DNA from: an uncultured Clostridia bacterium
Lineage (GTDB): Bacteria > Bacillota > Clostridia > TANB77 > CAG-508
Length of the DNA: 56,833 nt
Direction: 5' to 3'
Assembly (NCBI GenBank): GCA_934167365.1
Contig: CAKPKU010000002.1
Span: 1 to 56,833, forward strand
The translations under genes and the position numbers were made by a program. The notes below the pieces were generated by a model. The model worked only from the letters and a program-made list of their open reading frames with translations. It was not told where the DNA came from and did no database searches. Position 1 is the first letter of the stretch; every line of letters begins with the position of its first letter. Below, piece by piece: positions 7,046 to 50,700 of this stretch.

Positions 7046-7059
7046 TGAGGTGAAATTTT

Positions 7060-8544: not shown

Positions 8545-8555
8545 GAGAAGTTTAT

Positions 8556-29086: not shown

Positions 29087-29638
29087 ACAGCCCATTGTAC
29101 ATTTTTTAGCTCTACACCGTGCAATTGTGCTGAAATAGAATATGTTTCTTTTAATAAAAAATGTCATCTAATTAATAACAATGAAACTTATGATGTAGAA
29201 CACGGAAAAGATATATACATGAAAGCATTTTTAAGCAATATAGCTCTTTGTGACTCTTGCACAAATTGCAAGTTTAAAAAAGAAAACAGAGCATCTGACA
29301 TTACATTAGCTGATTTTTGGGGAATTAATAATATAAGACCAGATATGAATGATGAAAAAGGAACATCATTAGTAATAGTTAACTCTGAAAAAGGCAAGTT
29401 ATTATTCGAAGAAATCTCAAATATAATAAAAAGCGAAGAGGTAGACTTTCACACAGCAATAAAACCAAATCCAAGCATGAATACCGTATCACCAAGAAAT
29501 AGTAAAAACGATGAATTTTTTGCCGATATTAATAAAATACCTTTTGATGAACTAGTAAAAAAATATATACCAGAGCCATCAATTGCAAAAAAGGTGATGA
29601 GTAAAATGAAGAGGATTGTTAAAAAAATATTAAAATAA
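29087..29638 (+). pseudogene. Truncated FrhB-like (F420 hydrogenase beta-like) gene remnant
   Basis: Only the C-terminal part is present. ...CDSCTNCKFKKENRASDITLADFWGINNIRPDMNDEKGTSLVIVNSEKG aligns by eye with ...CYQCHYTNCNRVSNITLADYWGISGIHPDFYKEEGNSLILINDKKG of the intact copy at 18445-19632. The ferredoxin N-terminus is missing. Confidence 0.75.
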
Positions 29639-29758
29639 ATTGAAAACATGGAATATTGAAAAATATTCTGTGTTTTTTATTTTTTCGACAAATTGTGACA
29701 AATTTTTCAAAAGATTAGAGCTAAAGTAGATATATTAATTATAGAAGGAGTAGATTTT

Positions 29759-31771
29759 ATGTATATTAAGAAACTAATAATAAACAATTATAAAAGCATA
29801 AAAAATGAAACATTTGAATTTAGCAAAGGAATTAATGTATTAGTCGGAAAAAACAATGCAGGAAAAAGCAATATAGTATCAGCTTTAAATGAAGTCTTGT
29901 CTGATAAAAATAATACTACAGGTTATGAAGACAAAATTTTTTATACAAATGATATTGATAAAATTAAACATGGATTTATGATTATTGCCGAAATAGAAGA
30001 ATTGGAAAACTTAGATTTTGAGTATTTAAATAATATCAAAAAAAGTGTAGGTTTAATAAAAATCAATGATTTTTTCAGTGAAGAGAATCAAGATTGGAAA
30101 AGCGAATGGGTAATTAAAGAAGATGATGAACTAAAAGAAAAATATGAAGAGGAATTAAGTGGAAAAAAAAGTATTTCATCAAATATATTATATTGGAAAA
30201 AGAAAGATGAGTTAATTAATCTGTTAAAAAACACAGAAAAAATATGGTTATACAAATATTATAACAAAGATACAGATACAAATTTATTAAATATTATAAT
30301 TAAAGAAAAAAAAATAACAAGTCTAGCACCAAATAATTATTATAGAATGGTATATGTTAATCAAAATGTTAAATCAACTCTAATTACAAGTTTGGTTGTA
30401 CCAGCCTTTAGATCACCAGAAACAACTTTAAAAATTAACAAATGGTCATGGTATGGAAAATTATTGCAAAAAAAATGGAACGAATGTTGTGATAATGATG
30501 ACATAAAAAATATTGATGATGCAGCACAAAAATTAAAATTAACTGTAGGAAAAGTATATAATGATTTAAAAGAACAAGTTAACATTCAATTATCACATGC
30601 TTTAAGCTTAATGAATATAAATGTTGATATAAACATGTTAGAAAACAAAAAGGAAGATTATTATAAAAATATAAGGCTATATATAAATGATGGTGTTGAA
30701 ACACCTTTAGAAAATAAAGGAAGTGGGTTGCAGAGCCTAATTATAATAGAATTATTTAAATTATATTGTAAAACATTTAATAAATCATCATTACTTATAT
30801 TAGAAGAACCTGAACTTTTTTTACATCCACATGCGAAAAGAATGTTATCAGGTATTTTAAAGGATTTTTTAGAGATTGATAGCGTGATAAAAAATCAAAT
30901 TATTGTAACAACACACGCTCAAGAGTTTGTGGAAGATGTTGATATAGAAAATATAAATGTTATAAAAAAGGGTGAAGAGGGAACCAAAAAAAGCAAGATA
31001 AATGTTAATCAATATGATTTAAAACAGCTACAAAAATTAAAAACAGAGCTAATATATAAAAATGCAGAAATGTTTTTTGCTGATAAAGTTATTTTGGTTG
31101 AGGGAGAAGAATATATATTAATTCCTAAAATTGTGGAACATTTATATGGAAAAAATATATTAAATAGTAGAGATATTTCAATTATAAAAGTTGGAGGAAA
31201 ATCATATTTTGACATATATAGAAAGGTATTAAATGATTTAAATATTGAAAATTATATTATTGCTGATTATGATATATTATATAGGGAATTATCACCATTA
31301 ATTGATGAAGAAGACAATAATAAATTGAATGAAATAAAAACTAAAATACCAGAAAAATTGAAATGTAGCGGAAAAGCCAAAAAGGCAATTGGTAGTTTAG
31401 ATTGGAAAAAATTAGTAGAAGTTGCAGAAAAGATTATATCAGAGAAAAAATATAATGATGATTTAGAATCAGTATGGTCAGATTTTAGACAAAGAATATA
31501 TGAAAAAGTAAAACTTAATGACTTGAATGAAGAATTAAAGAAAGAAATGGTAGCTTTTATAGAAGGATTGTATAAAAAATATATATTTGTTATGAAAAAA
31601 GGAGAGCTTGAAGATTATTATAGAAAAGAAAACTTTACAGATGATATAAATAATTTAAGCAAAGGACTAAAGCCATATAAAATTGTTGAGCTAGTTGCAT
31701 TAGGTGAAGATATTGATAAGTATATTTGTATAGATGAATATCAGGAAATATTGGATAAGATTTTGCATTAA
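29759..31771 (+). CDS. OLD-family ATP-dependent endonuclease (ABC-type ATPase + TOPRIM)
   Basis: 670 aa. ATPase motifs: Walker A GKNNAGKS, ABC signature-like GSGLQS, Walker B LLILEEPELFLHP and H-loop VTTHAQ. The C-terminal TOPRIM has VILVEGEEY, KVGGKSYF and IIADYD. Confidence 0.8.
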   Translation: MYIKKLIINNYKSIKNETFEFSKGINVLVGKNNAGKSNIVSALNEVLSDKNNTTGYEDKIFYTNDIDKIKHGFMIIAEIEELENLDFEYLNNIKKSVGLIKINDFFSEENQDWKSEWVIKEDDELKEKYEEELSGKKSISSNILYWKKKDELINLLKNTEKIWLYKYYNKDTDTNLLNIIIKEKKITSLAPNNYYRMVYVNQNVKSTLITSLVVPAFRSPETTLKINKWSWYGKLLQKKWNECCDNDDIKNIDDAAQKLKLTVGKVYNDLKEQVNIQLSHALSLMNINVDINMLENKKEDYYKNIRLYINDGVETPLENKGSGLQSLIIIELFKLYCKTFNKSSLLILEEPELFLHPHAKRMLSGILKDFLEIDSVIKNQIIVTTHAQEFVEDVDIENINVIKKGEEGTKKSKINVNQYDLKQLQKLKTELIYKNAEMFFADKVILVEGEEYILIPKIVEHLYGKNILNSRDISIIKVGGKSYFDIYRKVLNDLNIENYIIADYDILYRELSPLIDEEDNNKLNEIKTKIPEKLKCSGKAKKAIGSLDWKKLVEVAEKIISEKKYNDDLESVWSDFRQRIYEKVKLNDLNEELKKEMVAFIEGLYKKYIFVMKKGELEDYYRKENFTDDINNLSKGLKPYKIVELVALGEDIDKYICIDEYQEILDKILH

Positions 31772-31813
31772 AAGTTTTAAAATATTAACAAGAAGAGAGG
31801 TGTAATAATTATT

Positions 31814-33706
31814 ATGGAAATAGCATCAAAAGAAGAAATCTTAAAACAAATAATGAAATATACAAATAATGCAATGTCTAATTATGCATTTTTAATAGAT
31901 GGTGAATGGGGATGTGGAAAGACATATTTTATAAAAAAATATGTTATACCAAAAATAAATGTAAATGGAAAAAAAGCAATATATGTTTCATTATATGGAA
32001 TAGAAAATATAAAAAATTTAGAAGAAAAAATATATATGCAAATTTTAGAAGAAATTTTTCCAGAAAATAGAGTAATGAGTATTGTGAAAAAAGGAGGAAA
32101 TTTCTTTTGGAATTTAGCAGAAACTACAAAAGAAGTTATAGAAAATAAGTTAGAAATTAAATTACCAGAAATCACCAGAAGTAATGTCGTAAACATCTTA
32201 AGAAGTACAAAAATGTTAAACGATTGTGTTCTAATATTAGATGATTTAGAAAGATGTAATATTCAATTAAATATTATATTAGGTTATATAAATAACTATG
32301 TTGAAAATAGAGATTGCAAATGTATATTAGTAGCAAATCAAAAGGAAATGTCCAAGATGAGATTATATAACAATATTGAGCAAAAATTATTAGTGGCACT
32401 TAATAGTAAAGTAATAATAAGTGATGAAGAAGAAAACACTAAAAAAGATAATAGAAATATAACTATAAAAGAACTATTTGATAAATCAGAAGAAATTTTT
32501 AACGAAAGTAATGAATATAAACATATAAAAGAAAAAGTAATAGGTTGTACAATGTATTACAGAACTGATTATGATGATATAATATCAAATATAGTTGCAG
32601 ATATTAACTTGAGTGAAAGAACAAAAGTAATAATAAAAGAATGCAAAAATGATATTTTAAAGAAGATAGAAGAATATGAACATTTTAATGTCCGTACATT
32701 AAGGTCAATGATATTACAGTTTAATGAAATTGTAGAATGTATTAATATAAAAAATGAAGAATATTATCAAAATGCTATGAAAAAGATGTTGATAATATAT
32801 TTAGAAGAATGCATTATTTATAAAAAAGGAATTCGTATTCAAATAAAAAATAGTACATATAATGATTTTTTATTTGAATATGAACATAGTTTTTTTAAAT
32901 CCATGAGAAATTTTATAATGTATAATACTCTTGATAAAAAATTGTTAAATAAGGAATTTAACATATACATAAAGACTTTAATTGATAAAAATGATAATCC
33001 AAATGATCCTCTTAATGTTTTATATATGAGTTATATATTTTTGAAAGATGAAGATGTTGAGAAGAATTTAGAGTTATTGAAAAAAAAGTTAAGGGAAGAT
33101 AAATATTCTATGGAAGTTTATTCTAAAATTATTATGATATTAATTACACTAAAAAACATTGGATTTTCTGAAGATTATTTGACAGATGCTATAAAATCAA
33201 TGAAATATAATATATCTAATAGAGAAATCTGCGATAATGAATTTGATGATTTTGGATTCTATTTTAGAAATAGTGAAGACTGTATTGAATATAATAAAGT
33301 TGTAGAGCCAATTATACAGGAAATTGAAAAACAAAAACCATTGTATAAATTAAATTATTTAATACAAGGAAATGAGTGGGGAGAAAATTTATATGATTTT
33401 TGTTCAAAAGAAAAAGGGATGATAGCATCAAGAAAAAAATTTCTTGCGTTATTAGATATACAAAAAGTAATAGATATGTTGGAAAAATCTGAATCAAAAG
33501 ATATAATTTATTTTTATAAAGCATTAGAGGAGGTATATAGCTTTTCTAATTTAGAAGAGCTTTTTTCTAATGATTTAGAAAATTTTAATAAATTAATAGA
33601 TGGAGTCAAAGAAATTCACTCAAGAGATAGAATAAAAAATATGAATCTAAATGACTTATTAGAAAAATTAAAGAGCATTTCAATGAATTTAAATCATGGT
33701 AAATAA
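31814..33706 (+). CDS. KAP-family-like P-loop NTPase without transmembrane insert
   Basis: 630 aa. Walker A is FLIDGEWGCGKTYF. Walker B is LILDDLERC, matching the DDLDRC hallmark of KAP NTPases. ILVANQ looks like sensor-1. There is a long helical C-terminal region, and no hydrophobic helices lie between Walker A and B. Confidence 0.65.
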   Translation: MEIASKEEILKQIMKYTNNAMSNYAFLIDGEWGCGKTYFIKKYVIPKINVNGKKAIYVSLYGIENIKNLEEKIYMQILEEIFPENRVMSIVKKGGNFFWNLAETTKEVIENKLEIKLPEITRSNVVNILRSTKMLNDCVLILDDLERCNIQLNIILGYINNYVENRDCKCILVANQKEMSKMRLYNNIEQKLLVALNSKVIISDEEENTKKDNRNITIKELFDKSEEIFNESNEYKHIKEKVIGCTMYYRTDYDDIISNIVADINLSERTKVIIKECKNDILKKIEEYEHFNVRTLRSMILQFNEIVECINIKNEEYYQNAMKKMLIIYLEECIIYKKGIRIQIKNSTYNDFLFEYEHSFFKSMRNFIMYNTLDKKLLNKEFNIYIKTLIDKNDNPNDPLNVLYMSYIFLKDEDVEKNLELLKKKLREDKYSMEVYSKIIMILITLKNIGFSEDYLTDAIKSMKYNISNREICDNEFDDFGFYFRNSEDCIEYNKVVEPIIQEIEKQKPLYKLNYLIQGNEWGENLYDFCSKEKGMIASRKKFLALLDIQKVIDMLEKSESKDIIYFYKALEEVYSFSNLEELFSNDLENFNKLIDGVKEIHSRDRIKNMNLNDLLEKLKSISMNLNHGK

Positions 33707-33710
33707 AAAA

Positions 33711-33757
33711 TTAAAGATTGCGGCATGATTATTATTGCAATCTTTAACATTTTTTTG
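33711..33757 (+). terminator. Rho-independent terminator ending the OLD/KAP operon
   Basis: TTAAAGATTGC...GCAATCTTTAA followed by a T7 run. Confidence 0.8.
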
Positions 33758-33803
33758 TATATTAAATAAAGTAATAAAATTCATAACAAATAATGAGGCA
33801 GAA

Positions 33804-34102
33804 GATGTCATCAGTAACACAGCGAATAAACACTATAAAACAATCCAAAGGAGGTTACATACCACCAAAAAAATTTGCAATTTCGAAAAAAGTGATAATG
33901 GAGTTTTAAAAATCGTTTTAAATTTGAAGGTGGGTACATTGATGTTATTAGCAGTGGCGATGGAAACTTTCTAACAGAAGATACTTTATGGGATTTTTAG
34001 GTTTTATCAGGAAACATTACAAGTAAAAATACATTACAATTGCTAATTTATTATATAATGTGTTCAAAGCGTTTGGCTTTTTTGAAAAATGAGGAATATT
34101 AA
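33804..34102 (+). pseudogene. Degraded small PD-(D/E)xK-like gene (frameshift plus in-frame stop)
   Basis: MSSVTQRINTIKQSKGGYIPPKKF... stops after 34 codons. A second frame continues FEGGYIDVISSGDGNFLTEDTLWDF*VLSGNITSKNTLQLLIYYIMCSK..., with a TAG where a D-F-K motif would be expected. Confidence 0.5.
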
Positions 34103-34424
34103 AAAGCAAAAATAATTAATATAATAACTTATTTATGTTTGAATTAAAAACATATTGTAAGGATTTGTATAATCTAAAAGATGAATATAAAACTGAAACA
34201 ATAACTGGTGTAACAGATTATGATGAAAATTCTAAACTAAAAGATAATGATATAGCATGTATAAAAAAATGTTTTGGAAAAAAACTGGAAATAAAAAGTC
34301 TATGTTTTTTTGTTTTTACGACAAATTACGACAGATTTTGCAAAAAAGTTACTTTATAATATACTGGAATATTGAATTACCAATAAGTAATTTTGTATTT
34401 AATATTACTGGAGGAGAAGAAAAA

Positions 34425-35499: not shown

Positions 35500-37008
35500 A
35501 TGAATTTAAAATTATTTAATGAACAAAATGAATATGAACAGTTGGTTAGAAGATTCAAAGCAAAAGAATCAATAGAATATTTAGGTAAATTGTCTTATTA
35601 TGCATATACAAATGGAGATAATGGAATTTCAAAATTTGAGGATATTCTAAAATAAGACCATTCGATAAGAATAATTGGAGATGGAGTGGGTCAATGGGAG
35701 CTAGTTGAGTTAGGTTTTGACATAATTAAATACAGTAATAATTATAGAGGAAAAAGTTTAAATGATAATTCATTAATTGAGTTACTTTCAAAAAAGAGAA
35801 AACTAAAGGATTTCATATTGAAAAGTAAGAAAAGTCAGATAACAGAAGATAATAAAGATTATTACTTTCAGTGTTTAGCAAATGAACAATTTGATTATCA
35901 AAATATAAGACCAATAGAAAAATTTAATAGATTATATTATTTAATATGCATAATATGTAAAGAAAAATTAGAAAAGAATCCAAATTATATTGATTTCACA
36001 AAGGAATTTAAAAAAATTACTGGATTTGAGTATAGTGAATTTTATGAAAGTATTATTATATTACTAGTAGGTAGTATAGAATTTAATGAAAGCAATCTAA
36101 ATGTGGTTATGGATGTGTTAACTAAATATGGTTTTTTTTCGAAAAAAAAAGAACAAATATATAAGGTTCTTGAATATTATTCGAATGATTATGAGTTTTA
36201 TAGAAATCAAACAGATTATATTATGTTAAAGTCATATCCAATAGTAAAAACTTCCAAAGAAAGAGGTTGTTATATTATAGCTAATATATATGCCTTTATG
36301 TATAGTTTTTCTGAAATATTATATTGGACAGTAAAAGACTATTATTACCAACGAAATAAGAAGGATAGAAGGTTTCCATCTTTTTTTGGAAAATGTTTTG
36401 AAGTTTATTTACAAAATATTCTTGATGAATATGAGATAAATTATGAAAAAATACAAGAAGATCATGAGGAAAAACCAGATTGGAAAATAGAAATTGGAAA
36501 TTATATTTTCATTGTTGAACAAAAATCGGCTATATTATTAAAATCTACTAAATATATTAATTATGAAGAGTCAGAAAAAGCATTAAAAACTTATATGAAG
36601 AGAAATATAGAAAAAGGTTTTAGTCAATTAAAAAATTATAATATTGATGGAAATGGTAAAACAATTATAAGAATATGTTTAACATATGACAATATGTATT
36701 TAGAAAAAAACTTAATTGATATAATTATAAAAAAAACTAAAGATAATGTATATTCTAATGGATTGTATTGGATTATTGATATCGGTGAATTTGAGAGATT
36801 CTTGTATTTAGGTGTAATTGATGTAAATAATTTTAATCTTATAGTTGAAAAAAAGATAAAAATAAAAGATGAATTATCGAATTATATAAATAAAATATGT
36901 AATGATTATTTATTAAATAAGCACAATTTTTTTGGAAAATTTAAAGAATCTATTTTAAGTCAAATGAAGAATCAAATTGATGAGGATGTCCAAAATATAA
37001 TAAAATAA
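35500..37008 (+). pseudogene. PD-(D/E)xK nuclease-like gene interrupted by one in-frame TAA
   Basis: A 51-codon ORF (good RBS AAAGGAG, ATG at 35500) ends at the TAA at 35653-35655. It is in the same frame as the 440-aa ORF 35686-37008. The C-terminal region has a PD...E-x-K-like motif (EKPDWKIEIGNYIFIVEQKS). Confidence 0.6.
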
Positions 37009-37422: not shown

Positions 37423-37878
37423 ATGAAAATCATAAATGCAGTAACAATATCTGAATTCTTTTTGTCAAAAAGGGGCTTAACTCCAAAGAAAATTCAAAAA
37501 CTAGTATATTATGTATGGTTTATTGCATTAAATAATCAAAGCTCTGATAATATCGAAAATACATTATTCGATGAGCAACCTGAAGCATGGATTCACGGTC
37601 CTGTATTTCCAAGTTTGTATAAACAATATAAAAGTAGTGGTTGGAATGAAGTATCACAAACAAAAGAGCAAAATCTAGAAAATGATGATTTAAAAAGCTT
37701 CTTAAATGATGTATGGAATACATTTGAAAAATATTCAGCTGATCAACTTGAATATATGACACATCAAGAATTACCTTGGATAAATGCACGTAATAATATT
37801 AGCAGCATAGAGCCTTCAAATAATATTATTACAAAAAAGGATATCTTTACGTATTATAATAGTTTAATAGATGCATAA
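37423..37878 (+). CDS. Panacea/DUF4065 (SocA/GepA-like) antitoxin-domain protein
   Basis: 151 aa with LTPKKIQKLVYYV...EAWIHGPVFPSLY, the signature of the Panacea domain. An AGGAGG RBS lies upstream. Confidence 0.75.
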   Translation: MKIINAVTISEFFLSKRGLTPKKIQKLVYYVWFIALNNQSSDNIENTLFDEQPEAWIHGPVFPSLYKQYKSSGWNEVSQTKEQNLENDDLKSFLNDVWNTFEKYSADQLEYMTHQELPWINARNNISSIEPSNNIITKKDIFTYYNSLIDA

Positions 37879-37987
37879 AAAAATTAAATTGCTAGTTCAA
37901 GATAATAACGGCAAAAAAACACTTATAAAAGCCAATAAAGAATTAGTTAATAATAGACAGCGTGAAATTGTGTTAATGATAAAATAA
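37871..37987 (+). pseudogene. 38-codon ORF translationally coupled to the Panacea gene (possible truncated toxin)
   Basis: The ATG overlaps the Panacea stop codon (ATGCATAA). The ORF ends inside the 24-nt repeat junction at 37974-37997. Confidence 0.3.
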
Positions 37988-37997
37988 GAATGTACAA
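37974..37997. repeat. 24-nt direct repeat, copy 2
   Basis: Identical to 35187-35210. The hairpin right arm is missing here, and the sequence runs directly into the radical-SAM remnant. Confidence 0.9.
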
Positions 37998-38445
37998 AAA
38001 ACAGAAAAAAATATTAGCAAATGAACCTGTAAATTACATGGAGTTACGATCTCCTTGTGGTGGTGCAATCGGACAGTTAGCATATTATTACGATGGTAAT
38101 ATTTATACTTGTGATGAAGGCAGAATGCTAGCTGAAATGGGTAATGACAGTTTTAAAGTTGGAAATGTTTATGAAAATACATATAACGATTTAGTAACAA
38201 GCGATTCAGCTAAAACAGTTTGTGTTTCTTCTTGTTTAGAGTGTTTAACAAAATGTCATAGCTGTGTATATATGCCATATTGCGGAACTTGTCCAGTAAT
38301 AAATCTGGCTCAAGAAAACAATATATTTTCTAGAGCTAATGAAAATTATAGATGTAAGATTTATAAAGGAATGATAAAGGAATTGTTTAGATATATTGAG
38401 ATGGGTGATGATGACGTTATTAGGATTTTTAACGGATGGTTATAA
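37990..38445 (+). pseudogene. 3' fragment of a radical SAM/SPASM-domain maturase gene
   Basis: The 151 aa cover only a Cys-rich SPASM-like C-terminus (SPCGGAIGQLAYYYDGNIYTCDEGR...CLECLTKCHSCVYMPYCGTCPV). The N-terminal CxxxCxxC radical-SAM core is absent. Confidence 0.6.
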
Positions 38446-39071: not shown

Positions 39072-39752
39072 ATGCAATATTACAATATAAAAGTAGCTGT
39101 ATTATTAAAAAGTGATACAAAAACATTTGAAAACTATGAAAAAATATCTAAATTAATATCAGCTTCAATGCTAAAAGATCAAACATTAAAACAACTGCAC
39201 GAAGAAAACAGATATAAAAATTATGTTTTTTGTAATTTATACCCAATAGAAAAAGATGGTGTATATAAAGCTGGAAACATCTACACATTTCAAATACGAA
39301 CAATTGACTTTAAATTAGGTCTAAAAATAAAACAAGTATTAAATAACTTTCAAAACGAGGAATTTAAAGTAATTGTAAGTGACCTAGAAAGCAGTACTCA
39401 AAGAAAAATTAGTACTTTAGCCACTCTAACACCAGCTATAATAACATCAAACAAAGGTGATTATTTAATAAACAATGATATGAATTGGGTAAAAGAGCGA
39501 ATATTAGCAAATGCTCAAAAAAAGTACAACCAATTATACAACGAAAAAATAGATATGGATTTCATAAAATCAATAAAACAAACTAACAACAAACCAATAA
39601 AAATACCATACAAAAATATAAATATTCTAGGATATAAATTTGAAATAGAGGTAAAAGATGATCCAATTTCACAAAATCTGGCATATCTAATACTATCAGT
39701 AGGACTACTAGAAAAAAATGCAGAAGGCTTCGGTTTCTGTAAAGCTAAATAA
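39072..39752 (+). CDS. cas6: CRISPR endoribonuclease Cas6
   Basis: 226 aa, first gene of the operon, with a C-terminal Gly-rich loop (EGFGFCKAK). Synteny matches type I-B. Confidence 0.8.
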   Translation: MQYYNIKVAVLLKSDTKTFENYEKISKLISASMLKDQTLKQLHEENRYKNYVFCNLYPIEKDGVYKAGNIYTFQIRTIDFKLGLKIKQVLNNFQNEEFKVIVSDLESSTQRKISTLATLTPAIITSNKGDYLINNDMNWVKERILANAQKKYNQLYNEKIDMDFIKSIKQTNNKPIKIPYKNINILGYKFEIEVKDDPISQNLAYLILSVGLLEKNAEGFGFCKAK

Positions 39753-39775
39753 AAAGCAAGGAGGTGTTTTATTAA

Positions 39776-41578
39776 ATGACATATGACTTAATACAAACAT
39801 TCAAACAAATATTTAAAGATGATAAAGTTGTTTTAGATTCATACAAAATGGATGCTGGATATTACTATTTAGCAAAAAAAGATGGAACTTTACAACGATT
39901 GATTGTTAATAAGGATAATGAAAGTGATGATTATGAATTGTATAAATATTTAAAAGTAAGAGATTTTTATAGTAAATATTTAAATTCAAATAAAGCAATT
40001 GACACAGGATATACAGAAGTTATTGGAAAAACAAAATATTCAATGCTAAAAAAAATATGCAGTAACAATATATATACGTTGTTTTTCAAGAATAAATTTG
40101 TAGAAGGCTTATGCAATTCCGACAATAGCAAAGATTCTGTTAATCTAGAAATATTTAAAAAGGGAATTAACAAATATTACGAATCTTTAGGAAAGTTAGG
40201 AAGCTCTAAGGAAGAAAAAATATTATTAAGTGAGTTTTATAATAAAGAAGAGCTAGAAAAAGCTAAAAGCAAAATGATAAATGCTTTTTCTTTAGTATAT
40301 TCAGACTTCATGAAGGAAGATAAACCAAAAGAAACTTGGATAAAAATATTTTTAGAAGAAGGATATGATGAATATATAAAAGCCGCAAATATATATTTAA
40401 CACTAAAATTATTTAATACAAATAGCAACAATATTAAAGTCGATGATGAAATTTATGGTGTAAATAACTATAATTATGGACTAAATTCAAAGAAACCATA
40501 TCTAGAATTAAAATCTACACCATATAAAGTAAGCTCTTTAATATCAAAAGAAGACGTTAATATCTTAAATAATATGTATAAATGGTTATACAATAATGGT
40601 GTTAGCGAAACAGTACTAAAATTACCAAGAGAATGGGATTTCAAGGGTATTGCTACTGAAAAAAGTGATATATTAAATAAAGATTTATATTTGATAAAAG
40701 TAGCAGGAAACAATGGCGTAGCAAGAGTTGACGATTTTCAATACATAACCAATTTTACTACGAAAATCAGAAAATTTGTTGTTAATGATACAATCCGCAA
40801 AGTAGGCAATGAATTTAAAACTGAAAATATATATGGTCTTGAGTTTTATACAAGTAATACATGGATTGCTAATAATAGTAAATCTGAAAAAAATTATTTA
40901 AGAGATTCTTATTATGATTTTGAAAATAAAGTTTCAAAATCAATAGCAATATCTAATTGGAAAAAGGATTTTTTAAAGCAGAATGCAACAATATTTTTTG
41001 AATTATTTCAAAAAGAAGATGAAACAAATTTTGTTCATAATTTAAATAAATTTGGAGTGTATCTAATTGAAAATACTATTATTGAAGAATTAGAGAAAAA
41101 TAAACAATACATATCTAATCCATTTAATTCAATAAATACAATGAATTTATGGATTGCATATAAAAAGTACTTTTGTAAAGAAGGAGAGGTTGATGAAGAA
41201 ATGAAAATTAACAATGTACAAGAGGAGTGTTTCAAAATTTTGCAAGATAATAAAACAATACAAACTGATGAACAGTATTACTTTTTAGCTGGACAAATAG
41301 CTTTTTACTTGTTAACTCAAAGCAAGGCTTCAAAACTAACACAAGATATGACAGCACCATTTGTAAAAGCTGGAAATTTAAAAAAATTAAAAGATGAGCT
41401 TAGATGTTTATACGAAAAATATAATTATGAGCTATATTTACAAGATGATAGATTTAACAACATATTTTCTCAATTATTATTACAAGAGCCAGATACTAGT
41501 GTTAAAGATAATAAAGATTTAATATTAGCAGGAATGCTTTCAAGCAATATGTTTTATACAAAAAAAGAAGATAAATAG
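39776..41578 (+). CDS. cas8b: Type I-B large subunit Cas8b
   Basis: 600 aa, assigned from its position between cas6 and cas7. I recognise no strong motif. Confidence 0.7.
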   Translation: MTYDLIQTFKQIFKDDKVVLDSYKMDAGYYYLAKKDGTLQRLIVNKDNESDDYELYKYLKVRDFYSKYLNSNKAIDTGYTEVIGKTKYSMLKKICSNNIYTLFFKNKFVEGLCNSDNSKDSVNLEIFKKGINKYYESLGKLGSSKEEKILLSEFYNKEELEKAKSKMINAFSLVYSDFMKEDKPKETWIKIFLEEGYDEYIKAANIYLTLKLFNTNSNNIKVDDEIYGVNNYNYGLNSKKPYLELKSTPYKVSSLISKEDVNILNNMYKWLYNNGVSETVLKLPREWDFKGIATEKSDILNKDLYLIKVAGNNGVARVDDFQYITNFTTKIRKFVVNDTIRKVGNEFKTENIYGLEFYTSNTWIANNSKSEKNYLRDSYYDFENKVSKSIAISNWKKDFLKQNATIFFELFQKEDETNFVHNLNKFGVYLIENTIIEELEKNKQYISNPFNSINTMNLWIAYKKYFCKEGEVDEEMKINNVQEECFKILQDNKTIQTDEQYYFLAGQIAFYLLTQSKASKLTQDMTAPFVKAGNLKKLKDELRCLYEKYNYELYLQDDRFNNIFSQLLLQEPDTSVKDNKDLILAGMLSSNMFYTKKEDK

Positions 41579-41591
41579 AACGTGGAGGTAG

Positions 41592-42506
<915 letters not shown>

Positions 42507-42521
42507 AAAGGAGGATTTTAT

Positions 42522-43298
42522 ATGCTAGAAACAATAAAATTTGAGTTATCTTCTAGAATGGCAATTATAAAAAAGCCTGATAGTAATGAAACTTATTATA
42601 CATATACTTTTCCTCATAAAATAATGATCTACGGTATTTTAGGAGCAATTATTGGCTTAAATGGATATAACTATTATTCATTAAAAAAATGTTTAAAAGA
42701 AGATGTTGAAGAGCTACCAGAATTTTATTCAAGACTTTGTAATTTAAAAATTGCTATTGTTCCATATATAGATAATAAAAACTTCAAAAAGAAAATTCAA
42801 AGTTTTAATAATTCAGTTGGATATGCCTCACAAGAGCAAGGTAATAATTTAATTGTAAAAGAGCAATGCTTGGAAAATCCAAAGTGGGATATTTATATAA
42901 TGGATAATAATTCAGATGAATATAATAAAATAAAAGAATATTTATTAAATCGTAAATGTGAATATATTCCATATATTGGAAAAAACGACCATTTTGCCAA
43001 TATTAAAAATGTAGAAGTTTTCAATATTGAAAGCAAAAGTAATAGTGAAAAAATCGATAGTATTTTTGACAAAGATATATTAGCAGATTATATTGATGAC
43101 TTTGATGAAATGTTTGCCTGGAATTTTACAGGAAAAAAGGACAAAGAATACGAATATACAGAAGTAAATCCAACTAAGCTAAATGAAAAAATTGGATATA
43201 CAAATTTTAGACAATTTATTTTTACAAATAAATCTTTGAAAATAAAGAAAAATTCGGATTTATTTTTGGTAAATGGTAAAATAATTTATTATTTTTAG
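42522..43298 (+). CDS. cas5: Cas5 (type I-B)
   Basis: 258 aa RAMP protein. The N-terminus (F.L....A.IKKP.SN) and synteny support the call. Confidence 0.8.
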   Translation: MLETIKFELSSRMAIIKKPDSNETYYTYTFPHKIMIYGILGAIIGLNGYNYYSLKKCLKEDVEELPEFYSRLCNLKIAIVPYIDNKNFKKKIQSFNNSVGYASQEQGNNLIVKEQCLENPKWDIYIMDNNSDEYNKIKEYLLNRKCEYIPYIGKNDHFANIKNVEVFNIESKSNSEKIDSIFDKDILADYIDDFDEMFAWNFTGKKDKEYEYTEVNPTKLNEKIGYTNFRQFIFTNKSLKIKKNSDLFLVNGKIIYYF

Positions 43299-43309
43299 AG
43301 GTAGTGTGT

Positions 43310-45751
43310 ATGAAAAGCAAATATATAGATGAAATTATAAATGATAATAAATATACATATTATGCACATAGAAAAGAGAGCAACTGCGAAAAAGAGCTGC
43401 TCTCTTCTCATTTAAAGTTAACATATATGTATTATAAAAAAATGGAAAAATATAAAAAATTAGATGATAAAGTTATAGGTATCATTAAAGATGCATTTGG
43501 TGTGGAAGAAGAAATTGCAAAAATAATATATGAGTATTTTGAATCTGCAATTTATTATCATGATGCTGGAAAAATTAATCCGTTATTTCAAAAAGATAAG
43601 ATGCTGAATGATTTAGGGTTAACACCAAAATTCAAAGATAGTACACATGCAGCATTATCAGCGCGTATTTATATAGATTGTATGCAAAAAAATATTAATG
43701 AAGAAAATATAGATGGAAAATCTAAAATTTTATTATATTACGCAGTATACTATTTTGGATATATTATATCTAGACACCATACAAATTTAGAAAGCATTAC
43801 AGAGCTTGCAGATGCAATTAAAGGAAAAAATATTCCTCAAATATTTGATGGCTCAGATGAATTATATGAAATCCATTTAAATACAAACAGTGTAAAAAAA
43901 TTCTTTGATAGATTTGAAATTAATTCAATAAGTTTATACATATTGTGTAAAGTTTTATACTCATGTTTAGTTAGTGCTGATTTTTATGCTACATATGAAT
44001 ATATGACTGGGAATACTGTCCCAATTGATACAGATAAAAATGATAATTTATTTGATAAATATGATAACTCTGATTTAATTAAGTCTATCAGAAAATACGA
44101 AAATAAAGAAAAAGATATTTCTGGTATCAATAAATTAAGAAGTGACATATTTTTAGAGGCAGAGCACAATTTATTAAAAAATATAAATAATGATATTTTT
44201 TATATAGAAGCTCCAACTGGTGCTGGAAAAACAAATATGGCAATTAATATTGCTAAAATTCTATATAAAAATAATCCTAATATAAAATCAATACAATACA
44301 TATTTCCATTTAATGCTATTATTGAGCAAACAGATAATACATTTGGCTCTTATTTTGATAAATTTAGCGATTATATGGTTATAAATTCAGTATCTTCTAT
44401 GGTTAAGGATATAAACGAAAATTTAGATTATGAGCAATTTTATATAAAAAATGTATTTAAACATTTTCCTATTATTATAACATCACATGTTAATTTATTT
44501 AATACATTGTTTGGAACAGGCAAAGAGCCAAATTATGGCTTATATCACTTAATTGATAGTGTAATTGTTATAGATGAAATTCAAGCATACTCTAACAAAA
44601 TATGGAGAGAAATGATTGAAATGTTTAGTAAGTATTCAAGCTTATTAAATATAAAATTTGTAATAATGTCAGCTACATTACCAAGATTAGATAATTTACT
44701 TAATAAAGATAACCAAAATAGCGAAGTTTTGAATAATAGTTTTGCGAAATTTTATGCCTTAATACAAAATACAAATAAGTATTATCAAAATGAAATTTTT
44801 AAAAATAGAGTTATTTTAAATTTTGATTTATTAGGTAAAAAGATAGCAAAGGAAGAGCTTATAAAATTTATTATTATGCATAAAGATAAAAAGGTTTTAG
44901 TTGAGTGTATAAAAAAAGATACAGCTGATGAATTGTATAAATTATTATCTAATGAAGCGGATAATGTTCAAATTTTAACTGGGGATGATAACAAATATAG
45001 AAGAAATGAAATAATAAAAATGAGCAAGCAAGATGAACCAATTATTATTGTTGCAACTCAAACAATAGAAGCAGGTGTTGATATAGATATGGACATTGGT
45101 TTTAAAGACATATCATTTATTGATGGAGAAGAGCAGTTTATAGGAAGAATAAACAGATCTAGCAAAAAGAAAAATTGTATTGCGTATTTTTATAATATGG
45201 ATGATGCAAGGGGAGTTTACAAAAGTGATAATAGACTAGAATTTAGTTTGGAAAAAGAAGAGGTTAGACAATGGCTAAAGAATAAAGAATTTGATAAATT
45301 TTACAACAAAGTATTAACAAAAATATACGAAAAGTCTGAAGAATACACTAATGAAAATATAGAAAACTTCTTTGATAATTGTAAATATATTAATTATAAA
45401 AAAATTCAAAAGAAAATGGAATTAATAAGAAAAGATGATTCAATACAATTATTTCTTAATTACACAATTGATTATAATGGTTCGAAAATAAAAGGATGTG
45501 ATGTATTTGAAGAGTATAAATCTATTTACTTAGATGATTCTTTGGGATATGCAGAAAAGAAAATAAAATTATCAAGTATAGCTGAAAAAATGAGTTTATT
45601 TATGTATACAATTTATTCTAAAGATACAAACATTATAGAAGGCGAACAATTTGGAAATATGTATTATATAGAAAATGGTGAGGATTATATTGAAAACGGA
45701 AGATTTAATAGAGCAAAATATCTAGGAAATGGGGATGGTCTATTTTTATGA
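43310..45751 (+). CDS. cas3: Cas3 HD nuclease/helicase
   Basis: HD domain (YYHDAGKINPLFQ; SRHH), helicase Walker A (APTGAGKT), a DExx box (VIVIDEIQAY) and motif VI-like FIGRINR. The ATG at 43310 is preferred over the GTG at 43304 because of RBS spacing. Confidence 0.93.
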   Translation: MKSKYIDEIINDNKYTYYAHRKESNCEKELLSSHLKLTYMYYKKMEKYKKLDDKVIGIIKDAFGVEEEIAKIIYEYFESAIYYHDAGKINPLFQKDKMLNDLGLTPKFKDSTHAALSARIYIDCMQKNINEENIDGKSKILLYYAVYYFGYIISRHHTNLESITELADAIKGKNIPQIFDGSDELYEIHLNTNSVKKFFDRFEINSISLYILCKVLYSCLVSADFYATYEYMTGNTVPIDTDKNDNLFDKYDNSDLIKSIRKYENKEKDISGINKLRSDIFLEAEHNLLKNINNDIFYIEAPTGAGKTNMAINIAKILYKNNPNIKSIQYIFPFNAIIEQTDNTFGSYFDKFSDYMVINSVSSMVKDINENLDYEQFYIKNVFKHFPIIITSHVNLFNTLFGTGKEPNYGLYHLIDSVIVIDEIQAYSNKIWREMIEMFSKYSSLLNIKFVIMSATLPRLDNLLNKDNQNSEVLNNSFAKFYALIQNTNKYYQNEIFKNRVILNFDLLGKKIAKEELIKFIIMHKDKKVLVECIKKDTADELYKLLSNEADNVQILTGDDNKYRRNEIIKMSKQDEPIIIVATQTIEAGVDIDMDIGFKDISFIDGEEQFIGRINRSSKKKNCIAYFYNMDDARGVYKSDNRLEFSLEKEEVRQWLKNKEFDKFYNKVLTKIYEKSEEYTNENIENFFDNCKYINYKKIQKKMELIRKDDSIQLFLNYTIDYNGSKIKGCDVFEEYKSIYLDDSLGYAEKKIKLSSIAEKMSLFMYTIYSKDTNIIEGEQFGNMYYIENGEDYIENGRFNRAKYLGNGDGLFL

Positions 45752-46239
45752 AAATAACAGGAACTATAATTAATTATTATTTTCATTGCAAACGCCAATG
45801 TTATTTATTTGCTAATAGAATAAATATGGAAGATAATTCTGAAGATGTAAGAATTGGTAGAGTATTACATGAAATAAGAGCAAAAGATGGCAAAAATACT
45901 GAAATTAAATATGACAATATGGTTTTAGATAAGATAACAGATAAGTATATTGAAGAATTTAAAAAAAGTGATGCTGATGTACAAGCTGCACGAATGCAAT
46001 TATTATTTTATTTAAAAAATTTAGCAGATAAAGGTGTAAAAAAAGAAGGAAGATTGGTATGCAAAGAAAAAAATAAAAATGAAAAGATAGAAAAAATAGT
46101 ACTAGATGATATTACTGAAAAGGAGCTAAATCAATGCTTAAATGAAATTGAAGTATTAATAAATAGCACGAATGTACCTAATGTAGAAAATGACAAGAAG
46201 TGCAGTAAATGTGCATATTATGAATATTGTTATATATAA
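45748..46239 (+). CDS. cas4: Cas4 RecB-like exonuclease
   Basis: 163 aa with an N-terminal Cys (HCKRQC) and the C-terminal CSKCAYYEYC FeS cluster motif. It overlaps cas3 by 4 nt. Confidence 0.9.
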   Translation: MKITGTIINYYFHCKRQCYLFANRINMEDNSEDVRIGRVLHEIRAKDGKNTEIKYDNMVLDKITDKYIEEFKKSDADVQAARMQLLFYLKNLADKGVKKEGRLVCKEKNKNEKIEKIVLDDITEKELNQCLNEIEVLINSTNVPNVENDKKCSKCAYYEYCYI

Positions 46240-46252
46240 GGATGTGATGTAA

Positions 46253-47254
46253 ATGAAATCAGAAAGTAAGTATATTTTTTCAAAAGGGGACTTTACCAGA
46301 AGTGATTTCAGTATAAAATTTAAAAATGAAAGTGGAAATTTTTATTTACCAATAGAAAAAGTAAAAGAGCTATATTGTTTTAATGATGTTACCATTTCTA
46401 CTAAATTATTAGACATATTAGCAACTGCTGGAATAATAGTTCATTTTTTCAATTATTATGGAAATTATATTGGTACATTTTATCCTAAAGAGAATTTAAT
46501 AAGTGGTAGATTGATCGTAAAACAAGTTGAAACATTTCAAAATTATAGAATCGAGATTGCAAAAGCTTTTGTTAAAGGAATTGCACAAAATATTAAATCT
46601 ATATTATATCATTATTACAGACATGGTGTTAAAGAAATAAAGCCTGTTATAGATTTTTGTAATAAAGATGTTGAAAAACTATTAAGCAAGGCGAAAGATA
46701 TCAAACAAGTTTTATCTGTTGAAGGAAAAATTTGGGCAGAATTTTACGATTCTTTTAAGTTTTTTCTACCAGAAGATTTTATAATAAATAAAAGAGTAAA
46801 AAGACCACCAGACAATCCAATGAATGCGTTGATATCATTTGGTAATACATTATTATATACAAAAACAATATCAGAAATTTATAATACTCATTTAGATCAA
46901 TCAATATCATTTTTACACGAGCCAAGTGAAGCTAGATTTTCATTAAGTCTAGATTTATCAGAAGTATTTAAACCTGTAGTGGTTTATAAAACTATATTTG
47001 ATTTGGTAAATAATAAGAAAATAAAAGTAGAAAAACACTTTAATGCTAAATTAAACTATTCATTATTGAATGATGAAGGAAAGAAAATTTTTATTTCTGC
47101 TTTTGAAGATAGGTTAAACCAAACTTTTGAACATCCTGTATTAAAAAGAAAAATTACATATAAACATGCTATAAGATTAGATGGATATAAATTGATAAAA
47201 TTTATCACAGAAGGAAAAGAATTTATACCGTTCGATATAGAAAAAAAGGAATAG
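46253..47254 (+). CDS. cas1: Cas1 integrase
   Basis: 333 aa with conserved Cas1-type segments (EGKIWAEFY, RPPDNPMNALISFGNTLLY, SFLHEP). Confidence 0.95.
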   Translation: MKSESKYIFSKGDFTRSDFSIKFKNESGNFYLPIEKVKELYCFNDVTISTKLLDILATAGIIVHFFNYYGNYIGTFYPKENLISGRLIVKQVETFQNYRIEIAKAFVKGIAQNIKSILYHYYRHGVKEIKPVIDFCNKDVEKLLSKAKDIKQVLSVEGKIWAEFYDSFKFFLPEDFIINKRVKRPPDNPMNALISFGNTLLYTKTISEIYNTHLDQSISFLHEPSEARFSLSLDLSEVFKPVVVYKTIFDLVNNKKIKVEKHFNAKLNYSLLNDEGKKIFISAFEDRLNQTFEHPVLKRKITYKHAIRLDGYKLIKFITEGKEFIPFDIEKKE

Positions 47255-47716: not shown

Positions 47717-50700
47717 GTTTAACTTTAACATAAGATGTATTTAAATTTTTTTACTTTTTCTACTTGCTTTTTTACATCTTGCAGTTTAACTTTAACATAA
47801 GATGTATTTAAATTATGATAATGAACCTATAATGTCACTAAAGTTTAAAAGTTTAACTTTAACATAAGATGTATTTAAATTTGAGGGATTAACAAGACGC
47901 TGGAGAATAATATTAGGTTTAACTTTAACATAAGATGTATTTAAATTGCTGAATAATACTATAACAATTATTGTTTGTTCCAGTTTAACTTTAACATAAG
48001 ATGTATTTAAATTGGTGTTATTGCTACTTTGCCTATGTCTGTTATTTCGTTTAACTTTAACATAAGATGTATTTAAATAAAAATAGACACAAAAAAAATG
48101 ACAAACAAATTAGTTTAACTTTAACATAAGATGTATTTAAATGAAAATGCAAAATTACAAAAAGAAAATGTGGATATGTTTAACTTTAACATAAGATGTA
48201 TTTAAATAAATTCAAGATATGAGTGCATTAGAAATAGTACTAACGTTTAACTTTAACATAAGATGTATTTAAATGCACTATTATTTTCAATAGATACTTT
48301 ACAATCTATTGGTTTAACTTTAACATAAGATGTATTTAAATTCTTTTAAATTTTCATTTACTTTTTTAGTTTCATCTAGTTTAACTTTAACATAAGATGT
48401 ATTTAAATAAGTATCTTGAATTAATATATCAAGTATGTCTTTATGTTTAACTTTAACATAAGATGTATTTAAATTAATTTTTTGTTTTTGTTGGTGTATA
48501 TGCTTTTCCGTTTAACTTTAACATAAGATGTATTTAAATTACCAATTTCTATTCGCATAAACTCCTGCCCAAAAGTTTAACTTTAACATAAGATGTATTT
48601 AAATTGGCTAGTTCTTGATATGTTGTATTATATTTCTTAGGTTTAACTTTAACATAAGATGTATTTAAATCACAATTTAGGCAAAACAAACACACAGTAA
48701 ATCAGTTTAACTTTAACATAAGATGTATTTAAATAAAATAAAGAGTTTAAAATTGATTTAAAGTTATCTGGTTTAACTTTAACATAAGATGTATTTAAAT
48801 AGGTATACACAACCAACTTGTCCACCTAGAACCTTTGTTTAACTTTAACATAAGATGTATTTAAATATTGTAGAAGGTCTTTTTTTACTAAGAATGTGAT
48901 TAAGTTTAACTTTAACATAAGATGTATTTAAATTAACTATACAATATAACTTTCTTTTTTTGTTTATGTTTAACTTTAACATAAGATGTATTTAAATGAA
49001 ATAATCTTGAAAAAGCAAATTATAAAAAAATGTGTTTAACTTTAACATAAGATGTATTTAAATATGTTTTGGTATGTTATATAAGTTTCTTCCTTGCCGT
49101 TTAACTTTAACATAAGATGTATTTAAATTTTGTTATTGAAAAAATGAGTCAAGCAATTGCAACAGTTTAACTTTAACATAAGATGTATTTAAATTTACTT
49201 GCTAAACTACAATCAGCAGGATATATGAAAGTTTAACTTTAACATAAGATGTATTTAAATGGAATTGCAACTGATATGGTTGTAACAACTGCAAAAGGTT
49301 TAACTTTAACATAAGATGTATTTAAATGGCTTTTTTGTTGGACTAATAATTTGTCTTTCCATTGTTTAACTTTAACATAAGATGTATTTAAATTTAGCTC
49401 AAAGGACATCAGCAAATGAAAAAATAAAAGTTTAACTTTAACATAAGATGTATTTAAATACTGATTTTCCACTTCCAGCCGATCCTTTCATGACGTTTAA
49501 CTTTAACATAAGATGTATTTAAATAGTAATCTTTTTGTTCTTTTTGCTGTATGATTTTTGTTTAACTTTAACATAAGATGTATTTAAATGGTGCATTAGA
49601 TTTGCAAATGGTAGGATTAAATAATGTTTAACTTTAACATAAGATGTATTTAAATTTCCTCCTATACCTGTATTTTTCAAAGTTGTCAGGTTTAACTTTA
49701 ACATAAGATGTATTTAAATTTTTTATTACCGTTTAATGTGCACTCATAATACATGTTTAACTTTAACATAAGATGTATTTAAATAACGAATTAGAAGAGC
49801 TAAAAGGAAATTTAAAAGAGTTTAACTTTAACATAAGATGTATTTAAATATAGAGTGTGAGCCTCTAGCGCGATTATGTCGAATGTTTAACTTTAACATA
49901 AGATGTATTTAAATTTTGTCTAAAACTAAATACATTTCTATTACAAGCCGTTTAACTTTAACATAAGATGTATTTAAATTCTGTATTTGCAAAATTTTCT
50001 AAAATTGTATCTGCTGTTTAACTTTAACATAAGATGTATTTAAATTAAAAATGCATAAAAAATCAACTCCCAAAAAAGATGTTTAACTTTAACATAAGAT
50101 GTATTTAAATTCTTTTTGTGTTGGCAACTTTCCATAACCGCAACGAAGTTTAACTTTAACATAAGATGTATTTAAATCTCGTAACCTGCCATAAACAAAA
50201 TAGCTAATTTATCGTTTAACTTTAACATAAGATGTATTTAAATTAGATGTCTCCAGCTAAATCTCCAAACATCCAACGGTTTAACTTTAACATAAGATGT
50301 ATTTAAATACAAAAGTATTATATTTATTAATAACTTCAATGTGTTTAACTTTAACATAAGATGTATTTAAATACACTATCGTTAGGAGTTTCCATATTTT
50401 TACCATGTTTAACTTTAACATAAGATGTATTTAAATTAGTTGCCTTTTCTGGAGGAAAAGATAGTGGACTGCTGTTTAACTTTAACATAAGATGTATTTA
50501 AATAATAGCAACTATTACTAAAAATAATCTTTGGAGCAAGTTTAACTTTAACATAAGATGTATTTAAATCTTTCTTAACTTTATGAATATATTATAGCAC
50601 GGAAGGTTTAACTTTAACATAAGATGTATTTAAATTCCTTTCATATTAAAAAATTTTTATTTAAAATTACCGTTTAACTTTAACATAAGATGTATTTAAA

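Follow-up and report, generated by a model that had tools for sequence, protein, structure and literature searches.

The window analyzed here is a stretch of 56,833 nucleotides (nt) of contig CAKPKU010000002.1 (assembly GCA_934167365.1) from an uncultured Clostridia bacterium, with a G+C content of about 25%, as in Clostridia. It carries two adjacent genes, one encoding an OLD-family ATPase-nuclease (gene 1) and one encoding a soluble KAP-like P-loop NTPase (gene 2). An initial annotation had regarded them as a candidate for a self-contained, undescribed two-gene defence system. The underlying open reading frames (ORFs) of 670 and 630 amino acids (aa), 42 nt apart, were confirmed (Table 1), and all motifs quoted for both genes are present. 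The pairing itself was not recovered outside this lineage in the loci sampled, and gene 2 turned out to be catalogued already in PADLOC, as the single-gene candidate PDC-S49. Thus, two outcomes that the initial annotation had named as speaking against its proposal, lack of co-occurrence and a match to a named system, were both observed at least in part. We consider it likely that the window holds two single-gene defence modules that assort independently, are stacked in a variable-cargo hotspot and are co-transcribed only in this lineage, and not a new two-gene system. Both genes are new and divergent members of kinds that are already known or catalogued.

Independent assortment of the two genes

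Scanning one genome per species returned 455 relatives of gene 2, and the best 80, all from distinct species, were taken together with 7-kb flanks. At none of these 80 loci was an OLD gene found adjacent to the gene-2 relative, as a phmmer search of the flanks with gene 1 (E ≤ 1e-3) gave no match. With the phmmer filters off, one OLD match appeared in locus L038, on the opposite strand and 3.1 kb from the gene-2 relative. It was recognized by Pfam as a genuine divergent OLD protein and serves as a positive control for the sensitivity of the search. Likewise, none of about 10 contexts of gene-1 relatives contained a neighbouring KAP-like gene. Two further scans added few loci: gene 1, used as a single-protein query against metagenomes, gave only two, the query patterns being too specific, and a scan of viral contigs with the gene-1 alignment gave only four distant relatives (25% identity).

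The two genes are unequal in their distance to other sequences. For gene 1, relatives are numerous at 82-83% and at 56-64% identity. The nearest relative of gene 2 outside this strain is 38-39% identical, so that gene 2 is a divergent member of PDC-S49. Full-length gene-2 relatives (L001-L031) have no recurrent neighbour, and a homolog on a Bacillus cereus plasmid, which aligns end to end at 26% identity, stands on its own next to a small serine recombinase.

Downstream of gene-1 relatives (56-83% identity) there are five other, unrelated genes, or none. In the more distant ones, the downstream position is taken by a 226-aa gene plus an ApeA-like gene, or by a gene for a Schlafen/AlbA_2-HATPase_c_4 protein. 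In L090-92, the OLD gene stands behind an AlwI-type type II restriction-modification (R-M) pair with a 32-nt gap, and downstream there are only unrelated genes more than 280 nt away. An archaeal plasmid copy from Methanomethylovorans (L113) has no co-oriented neighbour, a convergent gene being next. In L099 (7024-9068), an OLD relative of 64% identity is overlapped by the 226-aa gene, to which no family is assigned and which is followed by a 439-aa HEPN_ApeA protein (PADLOC PDC-S58). Two other loci (L101, 5001-8436; L105, 5001-8397) contain an OLD gene, 62% identical to gene 1, together with the Schlafen/AlbA_2-HATPase_c_4 gene, the two being 16 nt apart or overlapping by 14 nt. This pair is the sole DNA (about 80% identity over 3.2 kb) that an integrase-bearing element and a relaxase/serine-recombinase element have in common. 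To judge from these sequences, the OLD-AlbA_2 pair is a better candidate than the pair in the window for a genuine two-gene OLD module that moves as one.

The same chromosomal site is occupied by an OLD gene of 82-83% identity in sister strains (L084, L087-89, L097, and L098), whose DNA is about 85% identical to the window from 29643 to the stop codon of gene 1. Similarity ends at 31753-31771, and for 31772-34121 no counterpart was found by blastn in L084, L087, L089, L097, and L098. A gene-2 remnant in the sister strains was rejected, as tblastn found none. The slot behind their OLD gene is taken by an unrelated gene of 258 or 192 aa. Compared with them, the window lacks this post-OLD gene, two further genes, and the UDP-glucose dehydrogenase gene, and has a 2.35-kb segment instead. 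According to the sequence comparison, this segment carries gene 2 with its own ribosome-binding site (RBS) and terminator and is joined exactly at the stop codon of the OLD gene.

The borders of the exchanged region are marked. A terminator hairpin followed by the TCGACAAATTnnGACAAATTTT block occurs in exactly two copies in the window, at 29642-29706 and about 34280-34339 (TCGACAAATTnnGACAAATTTT again at 34319-34339), i.e. two matches to the conserved block pattern versus 0.19 expected. The block has the same position 5′ of the OLD gene in L084-L089. In the sister strains, it is also found 3′ of the UDP-glucose dehydrogenase gene (L084 12717, L089 11908), and a repeat of about 500 bp, consisting of the 3′ end of the dehydrogenase gene and the block, flanks the cargo. 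Indels between its copies had hidden the flanking block from a repeat search; it was found by blastn, alignment, and pattern search. The closest relative of gene 2 (P0003 in L093, 38%) follows the same capsule genes with no OLD gene, and relatives of the 258-aa gene hold the same hotspot without OLD in L116 and L117. Since each gene occupies the hotspot without the other, the components assort independently.

This hotspot lies at the 3′ end of a capsule/exopolysaccharide (EPS) cluster (window 29219-34404; L084, L087-L089, L093, L097-L100, L116, L117). The PS_pyruv_trans, Polysacc_synt, and FrhB-like genes are followed there by OLD, PDC-S49, or unknown genes of 258, 192, 220, or 345/390 aa in varied combinations. 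Direct repeats of about 70-500 bp, made of the UDP-glucose dehydrogenase 3′ end and the terminator/TCGACAAATTnnGACAAATTTT block, form its borders. In the copy in the window, the dehydrogenase has been lost and the FrhB-like gene is cut to 139 aa; its counterparts in L084, L087, and L093 are full-length (371-385 aa). As a well-defined hotspot with repeat-marked borders, the end of the capsule locus could be mined for further candidates.

Within this lineage, the two genes are closely joined. The bracketing terminators reported initially were supported by folding, both being hairpins with U-runs. A simple terminator scan demands at least three G-C pairs and therefore missed these AT-rich hairpins. 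Neither folding nor sequence gave a sign of termination in the spacer between the genes. Because hairpins with U-runs stand on either side and the spacer is unstructured and bears an RBS, it is plausible that the genes form a single transcription unit, and one transcript probably covers both. Their arrangement is identical on contigs from at least three metagenome samples and is therefore not an assembly artefact. The TTCGACAAATTGTGACAAATTTT block 5′ of gene 1 is probably part of its promoter/operator, and consensus matching gave no confident placement of the promoter. The tandem 0A-like boxes described for this region were borne out in part: the first (TTCGACA, 29684-29690) is an exact reverse 0A box, whereas the second candidate (TGTGACA) matches at only 5/7 positions. 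Both fall inside the conserved terminator and promoter block (TCGACAAATTnnGACAAATTTT).

Protein families and known relatives

Gene 1 belongs to the OLD family, in agreement with the initial annotation. Its product matches the Pfam domains AAA_15 (1.2e-39, residues 1-391), AAA_21, and OLD-like_TOPRIM (1.2e-18, residues 439-505). The ATPase motifs GKNNAGKS (residue 30), GSGLQS (321), LLILEEPELFLHP (345), and VTTHAQ (383), i.e. Walker A, signature/Q-loop, Walker B, and H-loop, are invariant in 14 homologs. The TOPRIM part contains VILVEGEEY (444), KVGGKSYF (477), and IIADYD (500), and its residues E448, E450, E451, D503, and D505 are invariant in the 14 homologs as well. In PADLOC, the best model was Old (1e-43) with many GajA models close behind (GajA 3e-39); the AriA hidden Markov model (HMM) covers just the ATPase part (residues 1-391). 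Searching the PDB by sequence, the sole match beyond the generic Walker A region was the Thermus scotoductus protein TsOLD (6P74; 2e-13 with the single sequence, 2.5e-17 with a profile), limited to residues 305-520 and of low identity.

Genetic context defines the OLD classes (PMC10568477, PMC12392090), and class 2 is further marked by a helical insert in the TOPRIM domain that class 1 lacks (PMC10568477). With regard to this distinction, only TsOLD matches by sequence, and Foldseek scores GajA and TsOLD equally on an AlphaFold2 (AF2) model of low confidence (pLDDT 66), which was built from a shallow alignment of 14 sequences for P0121, a 673-aa protein 99% identical to gene 1. As GajA, TsOLD, and the retron-Eco8 OLD protein were about equal top matches of this low-confidence model, the structural search confirms the family and not the class.

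Three of the OLD contexts were rejected for gene 1. These are (i) Gabija (class 2), as no UvrD/PcrA/Rep-like helicase GajB adjoins gene 1, the sole helicase among ORFs of at least 110 aa in 22408-47254 being Cas3 at 43304; (ii) retrons (class 3), as no reverse transcriptase domain was found in the gene-1 neighbours and neither an Rfam match nor a retron RNA near the cassette, and the NCBIfam retron Eco8 score of 25 bits is below the cut-off of 250; and (iii) PARIS (class 4), as ATPase and TOPRIM are fused in one ORF and not separated into AriA and AriB.

By context and nearest relative, gene 1 is classified as a class-1-type OLD protein. The class is represented by P2 Old, T. scotoductus OLD (6P74), and a Vibrio cholerae class 1 OLD, and defence by such single genes has a published precedent (PMC12392090). 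Gene 1 shares with it the lack of a conserved helicase or reverse transcriptase partner, and TsOLD is the only solved structure that it matches by sequence (2.5e-17). Its single-gene character is seen in the roughly 10 contexts of relatives, which show five different downstream genes or none, with the caveat that one OLD sub-clade moves along with an AlbA_2 gene. Gene 1 differs from TsOLD (528 aa) or P2 Old in being about 80-140 aa longer, an additional helical stretch (about 510-670) standing behind its TOPRIM domain, and genes of its type differ from class 1 in often standing in tight, operon-like contact with another defence gene.

The assignment of gene 2 to the KAP-type NTPases was upheld, albeit by a weak pass of Pfam KAP_NTPase (PF07693; 1.6e-6, 28 bits vs. 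a cut-off of 20), whose best-matching stretch is confined to residues 9-43. All listed homologs of gene 2 carry PF07693, and in the B. cereus homolog it covers residues 2-179 (2e-11). Walker A (GEWGCGKT, residues 30-37) is followed by Walker B (140-147) within LILDDLERC at residue 140. In 80 gene-2 homologs, G30, K36, D143, D144, E146, and R147 (Walker A and the DDxER Walker B block) are invariant. All three PADLOC PDC-S49 HMMs match gene 2 (1.6e-50, 5.9e-41, and 3.4e-27), the last (PDLC05030) over the full length (residues 8-626). PADLOC models for Tmn, QatA, and PifA gave no match, and at E ≤ 0.1 only PDC-S49 models were hit.

In the AF2 model of gene 2 (pLDDT 82.8), residues from about 1 to 250 form an alpha/beta P-loop domain, in which a helical insert separates the Walker A and B motifs; the remainder (about 250-630) is all-helical. 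The KAP family as first described by Aravind et al. in 2004 reportedly has, as a rule, transmembrane helices inserted within the P-loop domain. In gene 2, the insert at this position has about 70 residues (60-137) and is hydrophilic (mean Kyte-Doolittle value −0.29). The top 19-residue Kyte-Doolittle window of gene 2 reaches 1.2, compared with 2.9 for a canonical 934-aa KAP protein of L093 used as a control, and 75 of the 80 relatives are likewise below 1.6 and without hydrophobic segments. Judged by its sequence, gene 2 thus encodes a soluble protein without a transmembrane segment, as had been proposed. The canonical KAP NTPase of L093 (10245-13049) lies 2.3 kb 3′ of the closest gene-2 relative (6001-7896). 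Its segments around residues 157 and 203 are strongly hydrophobic, and in PADLOC it matches PifA/QatA weakly.

An exhaustive search at E ≤ 1e-30 recovered 317 representatives (50%-identity clusters) of the PDC-S49 family, all of about 630-690 aa, none of which is fused to an OLD domain. Gene 2 has the same length (about 640 aa) and architecture as hundreds of relatives, and the full-length relatives are lone genes. It departs from them in being at most 39% identical to any other sequence and in being co-transcribed, as its context suggests, with an OLD gene. No mention of PDC-S49 in the literature was found. The family is large, uniform, soluble, and KAP-like; it is unvalidated, and gene 2 offers a confident structural model with no recognizable effector domain. 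In about 40 species of uncultured Clostridia (L032-L080), a homolog (around 7000-9000 of each locus; up to 9e-78 against the PADLOC model) is placed between a comFC-like gene, which is a phosphoribosyltransferase gene, and spoVT.

For the C-terminal helical half of gene 2, Foldseek gave nothing significant with this good model, and a profile search of the PDB gave nothing. With the complete model, Foldseek returned marginal matches only. The best was RdrA of RADAR (E about 1e-3), a defence ATPase that forms rings and whose C-terminal region is helical; ORC/Cdc6-type AAA+ proteins came next. The match to RdrA has a TM-score of about 0.3 and 10-13% identity, and no RdrB-like adenosine deaminase gene is adjacent.

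KAP ATPases in defence were initially said to be known only as Tmn. This was incomplete, as QatA is a KAP-family NTPase (PMC13279940), PifA is another case, both with models in PADLOC, and single-gene KAP NTPases fused to C-terminal regions without a known domain, including EF_KAP and ORFs from gut metagenomes, were validated as antiphage in 2026 (PMC13552941). The latter resemble gene 2 in joining an N-terminal KAP-type NTPase to a C-terminal region of about 300-400 aa without a known domain, although the metagenomic ORFs could be likened by description only. For EF_KAP, Walker B and the C-terminal region are both required for defence (PMC13552941). In contrast to gene 2, EF_KAP has transmembrane helices, and an Enterococcus faecalis plasmid KAP protein has only the NTPase domain in common with gene 2 (31% over 177 residues). 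QatABCD, in which QatA is joined by QatB, the QueC-like QatC, and the TatD nuclease QatD, differs in that no QueC-like or TatD-like neighbours are present here and the QatA HMM does not match gene 2.

Tmn and Gabija are independent systems that co-localize and synergize via NTPase-driven ATP depletion, an effect published for Tmn with Gabija and with Septu (10.1101/2022.08.21.504612; PMC13001434). The window resembles this combination in that a KAP/YobI-type P-loop NTPase with helical sensor arms stands beside an OLD-family ATPase-nuclease system. However, Tmn forms a transmembrane decamer, its transmembrane segments coming after Walker A, whereas the gene-2 protein is soluble and matches none of the PADLOC Tmn models; Gabija needs GajB, which is absent here; and the association of Tmn with Gabija is statistically recurrent, whereas OLD and PDC-S49 were found together once.

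Alternative readings and possible modes of action

The union of the two genes is traced by sequence comparison: gene 2 came as a 2.35-kb single-gene segment, inserted right after the stop codon of gene 1 and displacing the cargo of the sister strains. As independent modules, both genes would be co-transcribed, in this lineage alone, from the conserved promoter block 5′ of gene 1. By analogy with characterized class 1 OLD proteins (PMC10568477, PMC12392090, PMC12445682), the ABC ATPase of gene 1 may act as sensor or regulator and its TOPRIM domain as a two-metal nuclease, which, acting alone, would nick or degrade nucleic acid upon sensed phage infection. Judged from validated single-gene KAP NTPases, Tmn, and the ring-forming RdrA and QatA (PMC13552941, PMC13001434, PMC13279940), the gene-2 protein probably oligomerizes. 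By analogy with them, its helical C-terminal region might recognize a phage component, with nucleotide hydrolysis driving the response. Functional synergy like that of Tmn and Gabija is possible. Any cooperation would, speculatively, take place at the level of systems, ATP depletion by the NTPase relieving the inhibition of an ATP-sensitive nuclease, and would not be an obligate two-component mechanism.

Several observations weigh against treating the genes as unrelated cargo. In this lineage, the pair is one terminator-bracketed unit with just 42 nt of unstructured spacer, and its stability in at least three samples suggests that both genes are co-expressed and stably kept together. Among the gene-1 relatives, the downstream gene overlaps the OLD stop codon in L099 (41 nt) and L101 (14 nt), and the OLD and AlbA_2 genes travel together between two distinct mobile elements (L101, L105); this OLD clade may thus often work together with its downstream neighbour. 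Doubt also attaches to the defence label of the gene-2 family. About 40 distant PDC-S49 members hold a conserved housekeeping position between the comFC-like gene and spoVT, where one would not expect a mobile defence gene, and for part of the family this calls the label into question. The defence role of PDC-S49 is that of a candidate, unproven for the family. Moreover, the census of gene 2 covers the best 80 of 455 loci, and that of gene 1 about 10 independent contexts collected by direct look-ups.

It is rather unlikely that the adjacency is functional, either with the OLD clade as a promiscuous companion nuclease of the downstream defence gene (a KAP-like NTPase here; Schlafen/AlbA_2-HATPase, ApeA-like, or small unknown proteins elsewhere) or with the soluble KAP-like NTPase as an ATP-depleting trigger that unleashes the OLD nuclease. 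In the latter case, the synergy of Tmn with Gabija would, by analogy, have a cytosolic counterpart encoded in an operon. In a modular form of this idea, the OLD clade is a generic ATPase-nuclease companion of exchangeable partners, i.e. of whichever defence gene adjoins it downstream, or upstream in the R-M case. The spacing argues for such a role: in about 7 of 10 contexts, the next gene begins −41 to +50 nt from the OLD stop codon, two of them overlapping, and in L090-92 the OLD gene follows the type II R-M pair by 32 nt. The partners also look defence-related (Schlafen/AlbA_2, ApeA-like PDC-S58, PDC-S49), and with AlbA_2/HATPase_c_4 the OLD gene forms the only DNA common to two mobile elements. 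However, genes of the post-OLD slot occur without OLD at the same hotspot (L093, L116, L117), L113 has no co-oriented neighbour, and L090-92 have downstream only unrelated genes more than 280 nt off. Tight packing and overlapping genes are, furthermore, common in defence islands of low-GC Firmicutes, and the partners have no domain in common that could serve as an interface. We therefore regard an exchangeable-partner role as unlikely.

Very unlikely is a non-defence role of one or both genes, as a repair or maintenance ATPase-nuclease or a cellular KAP-like NTPase that came to lie in a variable region by chance. The order comFC-like/KAP-like/spoVT, kept across species by about 40 PDC-S49 members, would agree with such a role. 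PADLOC entries of the PDC type are unvalidated candidates (PMC11514479), and an archaeal OLD-family ATPase acts in the cell cycle and not in defence (PMC12796447). Yet close relatives of both genes are patchily distributed, adjoin R-M, ApeA-like, Schlafen-like, or CRISPR-Cas genes or ride mobile elements, and the cargo has been swapped for other genes in the sister strains. Patchy spread, defence neighbours, and replacement are the behaviour expected of defence cargo. Least probable of all is a dedicated, obligate two-gene system, in which the KAP-like NTPase would sense or regulate and the TOPRIM domain of OLD would be the effector. The single transcription unit with its short spacer and two terminators and the stability of the arrangement in three samples would fit it. 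A nuclease with an accessory NTPase is a common defence design (10.1101/2025.07.10.664194), and QatABCD joins a KAP NTPase to a nuclease (PMC13279940). The obligate system is largely refuted by the absence of co-occurrence, from the 80 gene-2 loci examined and from the sampled gene-1 relatives alike. Sister strains at 85% DNA identity also lack gene 2, its nearest relative stands alone at the same hotspot, and the depth of divergence to the nearest relative is very unequal (83% for gene 1 and 38% for gene 2).

Had the pairing been conserved, OLD nucleases would have gained a fifth genetic context, and a soluble KAP protein would for the first time have been seen as the partner of a nuclease. 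The preferred reading of two independent modules amounts to defence-island stacking of an ordinary kind, a recent cargo swap having joined two single-gene modules that are known or catalogued. As a natural construct, the probably co-transcribed OLD and KAP-like genes pose the question of whether cytosolic NTPases and class 1 OLD proteins, too, can synergize through ATP depletion as described for Tmn and Gabija.

Layout of the locus and its surroundings

Table 1. Features of the variable region at the 3′ end of the capsule/EPS cluster (positions in the window).
Feature	Position	Strand	Remarks
Truncated FrhB/FdhB-like gene, 139 aa	29219..29638	+	Pfam FrhB_FdhB_C 4e-8; left border of variable region, 3′ end of capsule/EPS cluster
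Intrinsic-terminator-like hairpin and U-run, 5′ of gene 1	29642..29683	+	Folding −15.1 kcal/mol, z −3.7 (hairpin 29642-29677); kept 5′ of sister-strain OLD gene
Conserved block TTCGACAAATTGTGACAAATTTT	29684..29706	+	Two GACAAATT half-sites about 10 nt apart, the first overlapping the exact reverse 0A box
Gene 1, OLD-family nuclease, 670 aa	29759..31771	+	ABC-type ATPase about 1-400, TOPRIM 439-505, helical C-terminal region
Intergenic spacer, 42 nt	31772..31813	+	RBS (GAGAGGTG), no hairpin; folding −0.1 kcal/mol, z +1.6
Gene 2, soluble KAP-like P-loop NTPase, 630 aa	31814..33706	+	PADLOC PDC-S49; NTPase about 1-250, all-helical about 250-630
Terminator-like hairpin and U7, 3′ of gene 2	33711..33757	+	Folding −11.9 kcal/mol, z −2.5 (hairpin about 33711-33747)
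Non-coding or remnant DNA, came in with gene 2	33758..34121		No blastn counterpart in L084, L087, L089, L097, L098
Second copy of terminator and promoter block: weaker hairpin and CGACAAATTACGACAGATTTT	34280..34339	+	Right border of cargo region

The pair is preceded by the capsule/EPS gene cluster, which ends in the truncated FrhB-like gene. On its 3′ side, the type I-B CRISPR-Cas locus noted initially was confirmed: a complete cas operon (cas6-cas8b-cas7-cas5-cas3-cas4-cas1) at 39072-47254 on the plus strand, and an array of about 62-64 repeats of GTTTAACTTTAACATAAGATGTATTTAAAT at 47717-51818. Small or unannotated ORFs and a SocA/Panacea-domain gene lie between the pair and CRISPR-Cas. Among them, a 440-aa ORF (35686-37008) has no Pfam or PADLOC match and is present in the other contigs of this strain as well; it may be another uncharacterized island gene. 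At 37423-38445, a 151-aa protein with a SocA/Panacea antitoxin domain is followed by a 151-aa ORF with a weak SPASM-domain match only, which together could be a toxin-antitoxin pair or a gene remnant.

The protein at the Cas8b position (600 aa, 39776-41578) lacks a Cas8 match in Pfam, its sole match being a sub-threshold one to CTD7 of ABC-3C systems (0.0066). Rfam CRISPR-DR3 matches the array on the minus strand, with the cas genes on the plus strand, and the last repeats (51594 and 51789) differ slightly in score.

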